Source: an uncultured Porphyromonadaceae bacterium (GTDB lineage Bacteria > Bacteroidota > Bacteroidia > Bacteroidales > Muribaculaceae). From it: a DNA stretch of 64,000 bases. The notes beneath the pieces are model-generated. The model did no database searches. It had not been told where the DNA came from and saw only the letters and a program-made list of their open reading frames with translations. The position numbers and the translations under genes are program-made. The first letter of the stretch is position 1. Each line of letters begins with the position of its first letter. The stretch lies in the NCBI GenBank assembly GCA_900541835.1, contig UQLL01000001.1, forward strand, positions 43,915 through 107,914, given 5' to 3'. Shown piece after piece: positions 18,331 through 62,965 of this stretch.

Positions 18331-18363
18331 CTTGTATGAGGGTGTTGCAAAATCCGGCGAATC

Positions 18364-18387
18364 GTAGGGATGCACCCTGGTGCATCC
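18364..18387. repeat. REP-like palindrome GTAGGGATGCACC-CTG-GTGCATCC
   Basis: Perfect inverted repeat with the family core sequence. Confidence 0.8.
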
Positions 18388-18410
18388 GCTCTGCTTTATT
18401 GATTGTCAGC

Positions 18411-18434
18411 GGCTGCACCAGGGTGCAGCCCTAC
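18411..18434. repeat. REP-like palindrome GGCTGCACC-AGG-GTGCAGCCCTAC
   Basis: Perfect inverted repeat, a variant of the family. Confidence 0.75.
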
Positions 18435-18483
18435 AATCTGACCGAAATTCTGAATTTTGACACACCCTCGTGAGAGTTGAGAA

Positions 18484-19464
18484 TTGAATACACACACAAA
18501 GCATTTTCCTTTGCGATTGACGCCCGCTTTAGCGCGGTGCACCTCTCGCTATCGCCTTAGGTGCCTGCTGGCTGTTGCCGTGGGGATGTTGCTCACCTCC
18601 TGCTTCACCGGCGTGGAGGGCACACGGCGCGTGGTGATGAGCAAGAACGATGTCGCCGCCACCCGGCCCGGCGCCGAGGAACAGCTAGTGGCAGGACTCA
18701 CTGGCACACCCCTCGCCCAGTGGCAACCGGGTCGCGAGTTCATAGTGCTCGACGACCGTGCGGCGCTGATGTTCGACCCTCACACCCTCCCCGCTGACCC
18801 TCTCAGCCTGCACCTGAGCGGCGACACCCTGCGCTACCAGGGCAACGACCGGCGTGTCACCCCCGGACTTGATACCCTCACCGTGCTCCGCTTCGCCGAC
18901 AGCGTCCGCACCTACTCCCTGCCCTTGCGGCAAAGCCGTATCACCAGCATGGAGATGCCCATGATGGCAGACGCAGCCATAGTCCACCGTCTCGACACCA
19001 TGCTCCGCGGCCGCACACTCTGGGTGCGCAACCCCATGTGGCACACCGCCGACTCGCTGACCGTGCAGGGTCTCAAATACTCGCCCGTGCGGGTGGAAAA
19101 GGTATTGCCCGGCGTGAACGTCTACCCTGTCCGCATATGCTTCCGCACCGATAGCCTCAGTGGCTGGCTTCCCGTTGCGCTTCCCGGCGCCGGACCGGCC
19201 TCCCGCAGCTTTGCCCAGCAGTTCTCGCTCACAGACCCTCGTTCCAACTATCCCGCCATCACCGACGAGGCGTGGAGACTCATCCAGCAGCAGCGCGTGG
19301 CCGAAGGCATGACTAAGGACGAGGCCAGGCTCTCACTCGGCGCCCCAAAGGACGTCTCGCAGGGACATAACTCGGCCCTCCTTTACGAGCTCTGGCAATA
19401 CCCCGACGGCTCGTACCTTATGTTCTGCGACGGCCTGCTCCAGCGCTTCAAGCTCGCCCGTTAG
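18484..19464 (+). CDS. Hypothetical lipoprotein
   Basis: Lipobox LLTSC after a hydrophobic stretch, with no recognisable domain. The N-terminal 40 codons overlap motif copy B (18504-18541), so the true start is uncertain. Confidence 0.6.
   Translation: MNTHTKHFPLRLTPALARCTSRYRLRCLLAVAVGMLLTSCFTGVEGTRRVVMSKNDVAATRPGAEEQLVAGLTGTPLAQWQPGREFIVLDDRAALMFDPHTLPADPLSLHLSGDTLRYQGNDRRVTPGLDTLTVLRFADSVRTYSLPLRQSRITSMEMPMMADAAIVHRLDTMLRGRTLWVRNPMWHTADSLTVQGLKYSPVRVEKVLPGVNVYPVRICFRTDSLSGWLPVALPGAGPASRSFAQQFSLTDPRSNYPAITDEAWRLIQQQRVAEGMTKDEARLSLGAPKDVSQGHNSALLYELWQYPDGSYLMFCDGLLQRFKLAR
18504..18541 (+). promoter_or_regulatory. Conserved roughly 38-nt motif, copy B (TTTTCCTTTGCGATTGACGCCCGCTTTAGCGCGGTGCA)
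   Basis: Identical to copy A at 34 of 37 positions. A G:C pair in the copy A hairpin stem is G:T (a G-U wobble) here. Confidence 0.5.
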
Positions 19465-19489
19465 CTGAGAGTTGAGACGACAACAAGCA

Positions 19490-19527
19490 TTTTCTTTTGC
19501 ATTTGGCGCACACTTCAGCGCCGCGCT
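19490..19527 (+). promoter_or_regulatory. Conserved motif, copy C (TTTTCTTTTGCATTTGGCGCACACTTCAGCGCCGCGCT), upstream of murB
   Basis: Same TTTGCAxTTGGCGC head followed by a GC hairpin. The murB ATG is 9 nt downstream. Confidence 0.45.
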
Positions 19528-19535
19528 TCCATACT

Positions 19536-60867: not shown

Positions 60868-60926
60868 AGTATTGGCATTTTATATATGTAAACGCACAGG
60901 CGGACATAAGAGTTCACCTCGACTTG

Positions 60927-61053
60927 GAGGGTGTGTCAAAATTCAAAATTTCGGTCAGATCGTAGGGCTACGCCCTACTTTAATCAATAAAGTTAAGTAT
61001 AGCGTCTGTACCAAGAAGCCGCCCTATGATTCGCCGGATTTTGCAACAACCCA
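60927..61053. mobile_element. MITE-like composite element, copy 2 (about 127 bp, inverted relative to copy 1, partly decayed)
   Basis: GAGGGTGTGTCAAAATTCAAAATTTCGGTCAGATCGTAGGGCTACGCCCTAC...AATCAATAAAG...GATTCGCCGGATTTTGCAACAACCC. Collinear with the reverse complement of 18338-18469, about 80% identical over the ends. The internal palindromes are degraded. Confidence 0.6.
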
Positions 61054-61129
61054 ATCCACAGTCGTAATCTCGTGGAGGATTTTTTTATCAAAAAGTGGTC
61101 GATGATTTTGCCATGTCGGGGAATTTGCA

Positions 61130-61137
61130 TAAATTTG
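61130..61137 (+). promoter_or_regulatory. -7 box TAAATTTG with -33 TTTG (61107-61110) for the WG-repeat lipoprotein gene
   Basis: TTTG-N19-TAAATTTGCAT, with the ATG 26 nt downstream. Confidence 0.45.
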
Positions 61138-61162
61138 CATATTCACACTAAACTAACCTGAT

Positions 61163-62923
61163 ATGAAGAAGATACTCATCAGTCTGACTGCTCTTGTCTC
61201 AGTCCTCCTGTCCTCCTGCGGCAATGGCGGCGACGAGGTGCGCGTCGACCTCCTTCCCGTCAAGCTCGCCGACAACGGCAAGTGGAGCATGGTGGACAAC
61301 AAGGGTAACATCCGCTACGAAGACGAGTTCAAGAACGTCCCGTCGGCAGTCGTCGAGGGCTATTTCACCGCCAGCGAAAAGGATGGCTACTGCCTCTACA
61401 GGGCTTCCGCCAAGAAACCGGAGGAGGTCGGCGGCTGCTCCGGGCTCAAGTACGCGGGCCATATGCGTAATGGGCTCATGCCCGTAACCCGCAAGGATTC
61501 CCGCATCTCCGTCATAGGCACCGACGGCAAGGACCGCTTCGAGCTCACCCCCGTCAAGGGCCGCGAAATCGTCATGTGCCAGCCGGCCTTCTCGGAGGAC
61601 CTGCTGCTCTTCCGCACCGACGAGGACATGTACGGCTACTATTCGACGGGCGGTAAGGTGGCCATCGCCCCAGCATACGACATGGCCATGGATTTCAGCG
61701 AAGGCAAGGCTGTGGTGGGAAAGAAATCAGGCAAAGACGGCGAAATCCGCTATTCCGTTATTGACAGGAGCGGCAAGGAACTTTTCCGCGTCAAAGACCG
61801 CTACGATCTCGCAGGTGGGGGCTTCAGCTGCGGATGGCTCGTGGCCAGCGACGGCGACAGGACAGTGCTCATGGACGAAAAGGGCGAAGTGACACGCCTT
61901 CCCGCCAAGGTAGCCGGAGCCGTTCCCATGCAAAAGGATATACTGGCTTTCCGCGACCACGACGGCCAGTGGGGTCTCATGCGCACCGATGGCGAGATTC
62001 TTGTCCGCGCAAAGTACGAGGCGATGTACTCGGGCGGCGGCAACACGTTCTTCGCCATGAAGGATAAAGACGAGGTGGATGTGCTCGACGACAAGGGCGA
62101 AGTCAAGGAAAGCCTCGACTTCAAGTTCGTCGGCTACGTGAACGGCATCGGGAACATAGGTTACGACGGCAAGGCCTATCAGATCTTGGACTCCAAGTTC
62201 AAGCCCATCGGCGATGAATTCAAGGACGTCAACATCAACCTCAGCCTCTGCAACGAGGTCCGCACCGACTACTTCAACTTCGGCTCGGTGATAAGCACCG
62301 TCAGCGAGCAGCTTGACGAGGCCCTGAAGCAGTTCCCCATCGGCGCGAGCGCCGACAAGGTGATGGCCGGCCAAAAGCCCTCCGCTTTCTCCTACAGCTC
62401 CAGCTACAAGCCCGAGGACCTGTCCAGGAAGCTTTTCAACTACCAGGCGCAAGTCGAGGTCAGCTTCTCCTCCTCCCTGGCCGACTACAACTGGTCTCCC
62501 GCCACCTATTCGGGCGACTATTCCTGGAACAGCACCTCTACGGTCAACGGCATCAACGTGCAGTACGAGTGCGAGCACTGGCTTTCGCTTGTCAACCACA
62601 AGGAAATGGTGGCCGAGTTCAAGAAGAAGTCATACAACGTGGTCAAGGAAGGCATGCTCCAAGGCTCCTACGCCGCCGTGCTGAAAAAGGGCGACATCGG
62701 CATGATTGTCATCACCAAGGCCACCCGCGGCGCCGTCATCGTCGGCAAGGCCAATGCCATCGATGCCTTCTGCGCCCAGGTGGAGGGCAAGTACGTGGAG
62801 CAGACAGAGGGCGAAAGCAGCTCCTCGTTTGACTCAGGCTCCATCGAGATGCCTGAAACCTCCGTGGCTGTCAAAGAGGCTGCTATAGACACTGTGGCTG
62901 TCGATTCAGACTACGATTTCTGA
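61163..62923 (+). CDS. WG-repeat-containing lipoprotein (hypothetical)
   Basis: Lipobox LLSSC. Multiple KWG / DGQWGLM / YGYY WG-type repeats. 586 aa. Confidence 0.7.
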   Translation: MKKILISLTALVSVLLSSCGNGGDEVRVDLLPVKLADNGKWSMVDNKGNIRYEDEFKNVPSAVVEGYFTASEKDGYCLYRASAKKPEEVGGCSGLKYAGHMRNGLMPVTRKDSRISVIGTDGKDRFELTPVKGREIVMCQPAFSEDLLLFRTDEDMYGYYSTGGKVAIAPAYDMAMDFSEGKAVVGKKSGKDGEIRYSVIDRSGKELFRVKDRYDLAGGGFSCGWLVASDGDRTVLMDEKGEVTRLPAKVAGAVPMQKDILAFRDHDGQWGLMRTDGEILVRAKYEAMYSGGGNTFFAMKDKDEVDVLDDKGEVKESLDFKFVGYVNGIGNIGYDGKAYQILDSKFKPIGDEFKDVNINLSLCNEVRTDYFNFGSVISTVSEQLDEALKQFPIGASADKVMAGQKPSAFSYSSSYKPEDLSRKLFNYQAQVEVSFSSSLADYNWSPATYSGDYSWNSTSTVNGINVQYECEHWLSLVNHKEMVAEFKKKSYNVVKEGMLQGSYAAVLKKGDIGMIVITKATRGAVIVGKANAIDAFCAQVEGKYVEQTEGESSSSFDSGSIEMPETSVAVKEAAIDTVAVDSDYDF

Positions 62924-62939
62924 CCCATGCCATGCAATC

Positions 62940-62965
62940 GGACGCACTAACCGTGCGTCTCCTAC
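62940..62965. repeat. REP-like element GGACGCAC-TAACC-GTGCGTCTCCTACA
   Basis: Family member between the lipoprotein and clpB gene ends. Confidence 0.65.

Follow-up and report, generated by a model that had tools for sequence, protein, structure and literature searches.

A family of GTAG-type REP elements in a Lepagella sp. chromosome and a RAYT-like transposase flanked by the same repeats

GTAG REPs have been described by Nunvar et al. (2010) and Di Nocera et al. (2013, PMC3733652), and REPINs by Bertels & Rainey (2011, PMC3116915). The published GTAG REPs prefer convergent and unidirectional gaps, can donate the TAG of their foot to a gene as a stop codon and also lie within genes for replication and repair (PMC3733652). 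The 2013 survey found GTAG repeats in the Proteobacteria, Cyanobacteria, Chloroflexi and the PVC group, and only CGTC repeats in the Bacteroidetes (PMC3733652). Subclass 2.4 of the TnpA-REP/RAYT proteins (Quentin et al. 2018, PMC6006769), equivalent to Group 4 in the scheme of Bertels et al. [quoted passage not shown]

The repeats of the 64-kb window (the whole stretch of Lepagella sp. chromosome that was analysed) and their transposase agree with the published GTAG-REP and TnpA-REP subclass 2.4 systems (Di Nocera 2013; Quentin 2018). The repeats are very probably GTAG-tagged REPs, many of them paired as REPINs, and as such non-autonomous miniature mobile elements. The kind of element is already well known and the Lepagella REP family is a new example of it; an earlier note on this DNA overstated its novelty for the Bacteroidales, as GT[AG]G REPs beside Bacteroidetes subclass 2.4 TnpA-REP genes had already been described (PMC6006769). 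Unlike the GTAG REPs surveyed in 2013, the host here belongs to the Bacteroidales and the sequence family is different. Many REP families are confined to one species or genus, whereas the core here is nearly unchanged in several families of the Bacteroidales.

A GC-rich hairpin is present at, or adjoining, all 15 positions at which the earlier note had listed a recurring repeat. The unit, 24-25 nt, asymmetric and oriented, consists of 5'-GTAG, the arm GGACGCAC, a loop and the arm GTGCGTCC-3'. The GTAG foot is unpaired, occurs on one side only and is followed by a GC-rich hairpin of 8-9 bp; GTAG REPs and REPINs have the same form, a short GC-rich hairpin with an unpaired GTAG on one of its ends. 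As GTAG/CTAC is restricted to one side, the arms are 8-9 bp and not the 11-13 bp of the perfect palindrome proposed earlier, and the core suggested for it, GGACGCACC-NNN-GGTGCGTCC, matches at three sites only, even with 3 mismatches. The commonest unit has 8-bp arms and a 4-nt loop (GGACGCAC-CNNG-GTGCGTCC, 24 nt including the foot), while a second variant has a loop of 3-7 nt and a total length of 25 nt.

When folded as DNA, a single unit forms a hairpin with a dG of -9.2 to -11.4 kcal/mol (z about -4 to -4.7). Many window units are inverted pairs that fold into larger hairpins, as in REPINs: the composite at 18340-18467 forms one long hairpin (dG -31.6 kcal/mol, z -8.7) and the doublet at 23630-23706 another (dG -24.9, z -6.4). 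Across 71 distinct 24-mers, pairing was kept in 91.4% of stem cells and stem variants were compensatory, with changes on both sides in 7 of 9 pairs (39 cells). The covariation score was reached by none of 500 shuffles and the signal was lost when the partner was slid. The window contains 17 units or relics at 13 sites, as follows.

13699..13722, minus strand: REP GTCGGGACACACCATGGTGCATCC, in frame in an HU-domain gene (12895-14223, minus), encoding VGTHHGAS in the disordered C-terminal tail of the protein; absent from the earlier list (frame worked by hand from coordinates, (14223-13722)/3 = 167, remainder 0)
18340..18467, both orientations: composite REPIN of ~130 nt between purL (end 18330) and the next plus-strand gene; outer inverted flanks GGGTGTTGCAAAATCCGGCGAATC / ATCTGACCGAAATTCTGAATTTTGACACACCC around two inverted REPs, 18364-18387 (plus, stem GGATGCAC) and 18411-18434 (minus, stem GGCTGCAC)
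21595..21618, minus strand: single REP in a convergent gap, 28 nt downstream of the stop of an AhpC-family gene (21647, minus)
23630..23706, both orientations: REPIN filling a 105-bp gap between two minus-strand genes; perfect REP 23630-23653 (plus) and partner 23683-23706 (minus) with a decayed inner arm
28310..28486, both orientations: wide inverted doublet between a 1047-aa gene and a DEAD-box helicase gene; degenerate REP 28310-28333 (plus, foot GTGG) and REP 28463-28486 (minus, foot GTAA)
29676..29699, plus strand: REP GCAGGGACACACCATGGTGCGTCC, in frame in the DEAD-box helicase gene (28536-29963), encoding AGTHHGAS in the C-terminal tail past Helicase_C
36648..36672, minus strand: 25-nt REP variant GTAGGGACGCATGGCTCGTGCGTCC whose foot TAG is the stop of a glutamine-amidotransferase-like gene (36669-38516, minus)
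44353..44377, minus strand: 25-nt REP variant GTAGGGACGCACGGGCCGTGCGTCC in a convergent gap, its TAG being the stop of a 410-aa gene (44374-45606, minus)
51651..51674, minus strand: single REP GTAGGGCCGCACCAGGGTGCGTCC in the divergent gap between PFK and EamA genes
52746..52769, no strand assigned: degenerate relic hairpin GGAGGCACCCTGGTGAGTCT, lacking the GTAG foot, in a convergent gap
56239..56262, minus strand: perfect REP, in frame in dnaG (55420-57570, minus), encoding VGTHPGAS in the variable stretch that links the DnaB-binding domain of DnaG to its C-terminal domain
60929..61051, no strand assigned: decayed second composite REPIN of ~130 nt, homologous to 18340-18467, with outer flanks kept and inner REPs worn down to GTAGGGCTACGCCCTAC ... 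GCCGCCCTAT
62940..62965, minus strand: variant or degenerate REP GTAGGAGACGCACGGTTAGTGCGTCC in the convergent gap between a WG-repeat gene and clpB

With up to 2 mismatches the 13-mer GTAGGGACGCACC occurs 13 times, against 1.86 expected, and 13 was reached in none of 100 shuffles. Good copies number about 12 (13699-, 18364+, 18411-, 21595-, 23630+, 23683-, 28463-, 29676+, 36648-, 44353-, 51651- and 56239-); those at 28310, 52746 and 62940 are degenerate. The local density, approximately one unit per 4 kb, contrasts with the modest repeat abundance of Group 4, for which ~14 occurrences of the flanking 16-mer are reported (PMC5581495). Inverted doublets (REPINs) are present at three sites (18364/18411, 23630/23683 and 28310/28463), as the earlier note had proposed; the copy that it placed at 60962 is not a simple unit, though it survives as a remnant of the decayed composite doublet.

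Non-coding DNA makes up 7.5% of the sequence yet holds 10 of the 13 sites (P = 1.3e-9), which bears out the earlier description of the repeats as almost always intergenic. Eight of the ten occupied gaps are convergent or unidirectional and the units lie mostly at gene 3' ends, starting 12-34 nt past the stop codon or overlapping it, a placement shared with GTAG REPs. Two copies, 51651 and 60929-61051, lie in divergent promoter gaps. The use of the foot TAG as a stop codon (36648 and 44353) and the in-frame copies (13699, 29676 and 56239), with replication and repair genes among their hosts, are further likenesses to GTAG REPs. The VGTHPGAS peptide was not found in the other 119 DnaG homologue clusters examined. 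No double-foot REP of the type known from TnpA-REP subclass 2.4 was seen in the window.

The window contains no RAYT gene. The earlier note had suggested that one might be encoded elsewhere in the genome, with the repeats as its substrate, and a RAYT-like Y1 HUH transposase gene (P0139) flanked by the same REPs was found on ENA ERZ28752329 contig_4311, 2,677,887 bp in length. The exact SmpB and PFK proteins of the window are recorded from 'Lepagella sp.' (Muribaculaceae, human gut), where the longest recorded contig is also 2,677,887 bp. The equal-sized contig and the exact protein matches indicate that the transposase gene lies elsewhere in the window's own genome. Its locus (62.5% GC) has 15 REP-core matches at 13 distinct positions in 20.6 kb, with REPs around the gene at 9944(-), 10049(+), 10707(+) and 10772(-); canonical REPs with a 5' GT[AG]G foot no more than 1 kb from the gene are also characteristic of subclass 2.4 (PMC6006769), and GTAG REPs likewise flank RAYT genes. 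The REPs flanking this genome's RAYT have the stem GGATGCAC, which is the variant at window position 18364, whereas most window copies have the stem GGACGCAC.

Homologous RAYT genes with the same flanking REP are found in many Bacteroidales, and a screen of 80 metagenome RAYT loci gave REP-core matches in 49. At one locus (L108) inverted REPs bracket a 158-aa gene, a homologue of which adjoins a REPIN at another (L046). In three homologues (L125, L128 and L131) the same core lies both beside and within the gene, comparable to the in-frame REPs of subclass 2.4 genes (PMC6006769).

Across the family, NH[IV]H, WQxRYHDHIIR and YIENN show little or no variation, and the catalytic residues of the HUH, WQ and Y motifs are intact in the Lepagella RAYT. 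The motifs NH[IFV]H and WQ, and a variable insert that lengthens the distance from HUH to Y, are those of subclass 2.4 (PMC6006769); the Y motif, YIE(N/T)NV (YIETNV / YIENNV), differs from the subclass consensus YIxNNP in having no proline. NCBIfam REP_Tyr_transpos was matched with E = 3e-15 and 5e-14, at 52-56 bits against a curated cut-off of 80, and the match to Pfam Y1_Tnp was weak. The sole PDB sequence match of the RAYT profile was E. coli TnpA-REP (4ER8). The top 30 Foldseek matches of the AlphaFold model (pLDDT 80.7) were all Y1 HUH transposases, including 4er8_A, which had the best query-normalised TM-score with full-length coverage among the fold matches.

The E. coli REP/BIME system with TnpA-REP (YafM; PDB 4ER8) resembles the Lepagella system in its GTAG foot, imperfect palindrome and inverted pairs. 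It differs in its HUH motif, which is DHLH/EHMH in subclass 2.2, to which the E. coli system belongs, and NHIH in the Lepagella RAYT. The E. coli hairpins are longer and bulged, and the sub-types of BIME that carry IHF or gyrase sites have been defined biochemically. To our knowledge, E. coli REPs (of the GCCGGATG... type) have no sequence in common with the window elements. The TnpA proteins of IS200/IS605 elements (IS608, ISDra2), which share the Y1 HUH fold and were among the top Foldseek matches, recognise subterminal DNA hairpins on single-stranded DNA, as by analogy the Lepagella RAYT may also do. IS200/IS605 insertion sequences are autonomous, occur in multiple copies and have left and right ends that differ from each other, in contrast to the transposase gene and many short non-autonomous hairpins seen here.

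Judging from its homologues, E. coli TnpA-REP and IS200/IS608, the enzyme would cleave DNA as a Y1 HUH endonuclease acting on a single strand. The REP hairpin would form where DNA becomes single-stranded, for example at a replication fork, and the subclass 2.4 RAYT would recognise the hairpin together with the GTAG foot, then cut and rejoin the strand so that units are copied or moved elsewhere. Insertions that survive would be found chiefly where a short intergenic gap adjoins the 3' end of a gene and sometimes in frame within disordered protein linkers. Intergenic REPs at 3' ends are probably co-transcribed as 3'-UTR hairpins.

A reading in which the units arose first as host signals, either mRNA stabilisers or terminators or gyrase/IHF-like binding sites, with selection and not transposition shaping their distribution, is very unlikely. 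It would account for the preference for convergent and unidirectional gaps near stop codons, and E. coli REPs are known to have roles of this sort (general background, discussed in PMC3733652). The REP at 21595 comes after the stop codon and ahead of another, terminator-like hairpin at 21583-21556 that has a T tail, and is therefore probably within the 3' UTR. However, no systematic T tail follows the REP hairpins of the window, and terminator-like sites in the region are not enriched (12 against 11.3 expected), with only two REPs flagged. The in-frame copies in three genes and those in divergent promoter gaps also argue against it, as does the lack of BIME-type Y/Z/linker organisation among the window elements, and a host-signal origin explains neither why the GTAG foot is one-sided nor why the elements flank a Y1 transposase gene. 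A host role is nevertheless compatible with mobile REPs as a secondary effect. That the units are transcription-factor operators, or belong to some other repeat class (CRISPR remnants, for instance, or DDE-transposon MITEs), is scarcely credible: they are palindromic and two sites are in divergent promoter gaps, but most copies are at the 3' ends of, or inside, functionally unrelated genes, their spacing is irregular, typical terminal inverted repeats and target-site duplications are absent, an Rfam search gave no match and the elements flank a Y1 HUH transposase.

It is also possible, though we consider it improbable, that the family is a fossil, REPs by origin that are no longer mobilised, with a domesticated or inactive RAYT and copies that are neutral or useful to the host as 3'-end hairpins. 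Among strains at least 99.2% identical, every REP site in the 30 kb that could be compared is fixed and only point changes are seen, so that activity, if any, is slow. Decay is visible at 28310, 52746, 62940 and 60929-61051, and the RAYT score is below the curated family cut-off. Against this, the copies at 23630 and 56239 are perfect, the catalytic residues that are invariant in the family are retained, the dnaG insertion was found in the window's species only, and the content of the REP cluster adjoining the RAYT differs between relatives that are 96-98% identical. Mobile GTAG REPs remain the preferred reading. The earlier note had held that finding the element at comparable density in well-described Bacteroidales genomes would count against its proposal, and as to its presence this is in part what was observed: the exact unit is present in at least ~38 other assemblies, among them those of two isolates, Mediterranea massiliensis and Caecibacteroides pullorum.

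The repeated unit in the window is a REP of 24 nt, which reads 5'-GTAG, GGACGCAC, a 4-nt loop CNNG and GTGCGTCC and is asymmetric and oriented; a 25-nt variant has another loop (e.g. GTAGGGACGCACGGGCCGTGCGTCC). An earlier note on this DNA had described a perfect palindrome with 11-13-bp arms and a 3-nt spacer at 15 listed positions. Direct reading revealed a related GC-rich hairpin at or beside each of them (15/15), and the feature is real and of the kind proposed, a REP. Its shape had been misdescribed: the corresponding pattern (GGACGCACCNNNGGTGCGTCC, 3 mismatches allowed) has the wrong spacing and matched 3 sites, and the oriented 24/25-nt model was used in its place. 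Thirteen occurrences of the 13-mer GTAGGGACGCACC (up to 2 mismatches) were counted in the window, where 1.86 are expected, and no shuffle attained this count. In its 64 kb the window has 13 REP sites with 17 units or relics in all; about 12 are good copies and those at 28310, 52746 and 62940 are degenerate; the unit at 13699-13722 was absent from the earlier list. In 12 window copies GTAG, or a form with 1 mismatch, precedes the hairpin on its 5' side, and no copy has it on both sides. Other loci gave 75 distinct variants, which were gathered with a pattern requiring GTAG and are therefore no independent test of this foot.

REP features of the window
18340-18467: composite REPIN of about 130 nt, outer flanks and inner REP doublet
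60929-61051: second copy of the composite REPIN
18364/18411: inverted doublet
23630/23683: inverted doublet
28310/28463: inverted doublet
13699-13722: unit in the tail of an HU-domain protein, read as VGTHHGAS
29676-29699: unit in the C-terminal tail of a DEAD-box helicase, read as AGTHHGAS
56239-56262: unit in the DnaG linker, read as VGTHPGAS
36669-36672: GTAG foot of the unit at 36648, its TAG the stop codon of the upstream minus-strand gene (amidotransferase-like)
44374-44377: GTAG foot of the unit at 44353, its TAG the stop codon of the upstream minus-strand gene (410-aa hypothetical)

Folding of the REP units gives an 8-9-bp stem with a dG of -8 to -11.4 kcal/mol and z of -4 to -4.7. As single-stranded DNA the unit is predicted to form a hairpin with GTAG unpaired (dG -9.2 kcal/mol, z -4.7), and the first two inverted doublets each form a long hairpin (z of -8.7 and -6.4, respectively). 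Covariation was assessed on 71 distinct 24-mers from the window and the fetched loci. In this set 91.4% of stem cells are paired and changes on both sides are found in 7 of the 9 stem pairs (39 cells), with GGATGCAC/GTGCATCC, GGCTGCAC/GTGCAGCC and GGACGCTC/GAGCGTCC as examples of compensatory change. The covariation score was attained by none of 500 shuffles and the signal disappeared when the 3' partner was slid, which argues that the selected feature is the hairpin, beyond the sequence alone.

The outer flanks of the composite element, about 24-32 nt each and imperfectly inverted, enclose the REP doublet. The listed copy at 60962 is the eroded centre of the second composite doublet, the flanks of which are identical to those of 18340-18467 except for 1 mismatch; no third copy of the approximately 130-nt element was found in any fetched locus. 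No BIME-1/BIME-2-like sub-types or linker organisation were seen in the three doublets, and an Rfam scan of the whole window at gathering thresholds gave no match. A weaker REP-like 13-mer, GTCGGGACGCCCC (56205-56217), shares the orientation of the dnaG REP and the Pro/Ser-rich linker in which that REP lies; it is located 22 nt farther downstream and may be the remnant of a further unit.

Genes were mapped using Pfam scans and the gene calls on identical metagenome contigs. Although 92.5% of the annotated span is coding, 10 of the 13 sites are intergenic (P = 1.3e-9), and the unit starts 12-34 nt from a gene end or overlaps it.

Intergenic gaps occupied by REPs, by orientation of the flanking genes
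Convergent: 4 of 7
Unidirectional: 4 of 16
Divergent: 2 of 6

The GC skew of the window tracks gene orientation, and the direction of replication is not readable from it. An identical 17-mer, TTTTTTTTGTAATTTTG, was observed at 28512-28528 and 51705-51721, 26-31 nt downstream of a REP; it lies 8-66 nt upstream of plus-strand gene starts (DEAD-box helicase, EamA) and resembles the Bacteroidetes -7 promoter element (TAnnTTTG). Elsewhere, positions 19497-21323 hold one gene for a protein of 595-608 aa with MurB domains (FAD_binding_4, MurB_C) and a C-terminal metallo-beta-lactamase-fold domain (Lactamase_B_2, with a weak match to Anti-Pycsar Apyc1). To our knowledge this architecture has not been met before for MurB.

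The three intragenic units each lie in a disordered segment, in sense orientation and in one shared frame (GTA GGG ACG CAC CCT GGT GCG TCC). Five of the six frames of the REP unit are open, and selection for a peptide that is Gly/Thr/Ser-rich and harmless may explain why these three cases (n = 3) share a frame. Among 120 clusters of DnaG homologues the REP peptide is found in the protein of this species only, the nearest relative (74% identity) being without it.

Several other readings of the hairpins were considered and rejected. Two REP hairpins are weakly flagged as intrinsic terminators; between 18 and 37.9 kb, 12 terminator-like sites were found against 11.3 expected, so there is no enrichment, and most REPs are followed by G/C-rich sequence, most without a T tail. 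The unit at 21595 lies between a stop codon and a separate terminator-like hairpin. A secondary, putative role of the REPs as 3'-UTR hairpins is plausible. The spacing and location of the units, together with the missing T tails, speak against CRISPR and operator readings as well as against terminators. A search of 2.9 million viral contigs with the REP gave one match, and the element is therefore not phage-borne. The window itself was dismissed as the location of a REP-associated tyrosine transposase (RAYT), since its gene maps hold housekeeping genes only.

An ORF screen of REP-bearing stretches revealed two small genes resembling E. coli TnpA-REP. At locus L108 two inverted REPs, their GTAG feet pointing outwards, enclose the gene, and at L046 it adjoins a REPIN; the REP-flanked arrangement is also found at L125, L128, L131 and L150. 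The protein matches the NCBIfam family REP_Tyr_transpos (E = 3e-15) and, weakly, Pfam Y1_Tnp. Scores of 56.3 and 52.3 bits against NF047646 are below the curated cut-off of 80, and by that criterion the RAYT is a distant relative of this mainly proteobacterial equivalog and not a member of it. At 90% identity the family forms 941 to 1,476 clusters, and JGI names one of them 'REP element-mobilizing transposase RayT'. Alignments of 25 and 40 members show MPNH[IV]HA and WQxRYHDHIIR to be invariant or almost invariant, and both motifs are present in the protein from Lepagella, the genus of the window. In the tyrosine motif the Y, the I and one N are invariant; the sequence is YIENNV in the family and YIETNV in Lepagella, and the proline of the published consensus YIxNNP is absent. 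The sole match of the family profile to PDB sequences is 4ER8 (E. coli TnpA-REP). An AlphaFold2 model (pLDDT 80.7, pTM 0.76) was compared with the PDB using Foldseek, and the best 30 matches are all IS200/IS608/ISDra2 transposases or 4er8_A (E = 7.5e-7 to 1.1e-4). The protein is thus predicted, from the model, to have the Y1 HUH transposase fold.

At L125, L128 and L131 the REP core lies both beside the gene and in frame within it, and in many family members a REP-derived peptide, DAPGCVP or RTHEPCVP, occupies one alignment position between the HUH and WQ motifs; no such insert is evident in the Lepagella copy. In the homologue tables many RAYT genes are on contigs of 0.5-2 kb, which would fit short-read assembly breaks at the flanking REPs. 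Several of the called proteins have an N-terminal extension that runs through the upstream REP, with GTHPGAS near residues 5-25; these extensions are probably mis-called starts.

A metagenome scan with the RAYT family alignment revealed the human-gut loci L150, L151 and L154 (58-61% GC). The product of L150 falls into a 90% cluster, the representative of which, P0139, is encoded on ENA ERZ28752329 contig_4311 (2,677,887 bp) at the locus L213. This locus has 62.5% GC and contains 15 REP-core matches at 13 distinct positions in 20.6 kb; its RAYT gene has GTAGGGATGCACCCYGGTGCATCC units on both sides, at 9944(-), 10049(+), 10707(+) and 10772(-), a variant that is the same as that at 18364 in the window. 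In NCBI records the exact SmpB and PFK proteins of the window are named 'Lepagella sp.' (Muribaculaceae, Bacteroidales), and the longest contig recorded for them also measures 2,677,887 bp. This identical length and the exact protein matches place the RAYT, in all probability, in the same genome as the REPs of the window, and the suggestion that a RAYT is encoded elsewhere is borne out, within the limits of computation, by this gene flanked by the same REPs. The homologues P0101, P0039 and P0021 were rejected as the RAYT of this species (50-54% GC), though they too have the REP core beside and inside their genes. Ranking of the RAYT homologues by amino-acid composition did not discriminate a high-GC host. 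No second RAYT, for the GGACGCAC subfamily, was found on contig_4311 among the 120 matches listed in a search seeded with L158.

The RAYT genes are GC-poor relative to their surroundings at L213 (10145-10666) and also at L150, L108, L046, L128, L131 and L158. The gene has 40.6% GC compared with 63% in Lepagella, 43% compared with 63% at L158 and 34% compared with 48% at L108, and overall the RAYT genes are 4-23 GC points lower than the host DNA. The low GC could reflect either horizontal acquisition or a family-specific compositional constraint.

In strains at least 99.2% identical (30 kb compared) the REPs are at fixed positions with point changes only. Beside the RAYT, in relatives 96-98% identical, one set has a GGATGCAC-type doublet, whereas the other has a 25-nt-type doublet and a lone unit. 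This suggests a slow turnover of REPs, as reported for REPINs elsewhere. By analogy with its homologues, the RAYT would recognise the single-stranded hairpin with GTAG and then cleave; cleavage and rejoining of single-stranded REP DNA at the GTAG foot is a putative activity, the mechanism being inferred from homology.

The window DNA is 100% identical to human-gut metagenome contigs. A scan for the exact 24-mer in one genome per GTDB species (596 Gb) gave more than 115 stretches in at least about 38 assemblies, nearly all Bacteroidales. Among the matches listed, the carriers include Muribaculaceae, Duncaniella and MAGs deposited as Prevotella, Bacteroides and Porphyromonadaceae, and the isolates are Mediterranea massiliensis and Caecibacteroides pullorum. 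Outside the Bacteroidales, again among the matches listed, single stretches are found in MAGs of Anaerolineae (L034, L078), Gracilibacteria (L093) and Clostridium sp. (L099). A second GTAG-hairpin unit is nearby in three of these four, as an inverted doublet in L078, and an exact match of 22 specified bases would not be expected to arise by chance in 596 Gb (about 0.07 by our own estimate). These matches are either mis-binned Bacteroidales contigs or a truly shared REP type.

According to Di Nocera et al. (2013, PMC3733652), GTAG-tagged REPs have a one-sided GTAG tag and form inverted dimers, prefer convergent and unidirectional gaps near 3' ends, give TAG stops to ORFs and also occur inside genes, especially those for replication and repair. 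Quentin et al. (2018, PMC6006769) describe TnpA-REP subclass 2.4 (Group 4 of Bertels) as abundant in Bacteroidetes and Cyanobacteria; its proteins share NH[IFV]H and WQ, canonical GT[AG]G REPs lie no more than 1 kb from the gene, and REPs are also inserted in frame in the transposase gene itself. For Group 4 a modest repeat abundance was reported (Bertels et al. 2017, PMC5581495). Every feature compared agrees with these descriptions, except for the proline of the tyrosine motif, and the REPs of the window form a GTAG-type REP/REPIN population whose RAYT is subclass 2.4-like. In the literature searched, this REP sequence family was not found described, and no published account was found of a Muribaculaceae genome from the human gut with about 1 unit per 4 kb or of REP near-invariance across several Bacteroidales families.

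A bolder and rather unlikely reading is that the near-invariant GTAG-GGACGCAC...GTGCGTCC and the subclass 2.4 RAYT make up a horizontally spreading REPIN-RAYT system of gut Bacteroidales, the REP having been repeatedly adopted, in one frame, as a flexible (V/A)GTH(P/H)GAS linker in housekeeping proteins, namely DnaG, a DEAD-box helicase and an HU-like protein. Such spread would contrast with the REPIN-RAYT systems of Pseudomonas and enterobacteria, which are strictly vertical and lineage-specific. It is entertained because the core is common to Muribaculaceae and to assemblies named Prevotella/Prevotellaceae, Bacteroides/Bacteroidaceae and Porphyromonadaceae, and because of the exact matches in Anaerolineae, Gracilibacteria and Clostridium MAGs and the low GC of the RAYT genes.

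The Lepagella system reveals no new mechanism. It places a dense REP/REPIN population alongside its own RAYT in a common human-gut Muribaculaceae species, and offers the REPIN-RAYT field a Bacteroidales subclass 2.4 (Group 4) RAYT with abundant cross-family repeats, useful for the question of vertical versus horizontal inheritance. Such REPs can give essential genes stop codons and in-frame peptide insertions, and are frequent assembly break points and a source of mis-called ORFs and extended N-termini.

The REP can also be arranged differently. Directly downstream of the RAYT gene on the 61%-GC contig of L158, a 96-bp tandem unit is present in 2.8 copies (502-768), each with a full REP, and is followed by a 36-bp tandem unit in 7.1 copies (798-1051), each with the REP 3' half ATGGTGCGTCCCTAC. 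In these arrays the REP is amplified in tandem and not dispersed.
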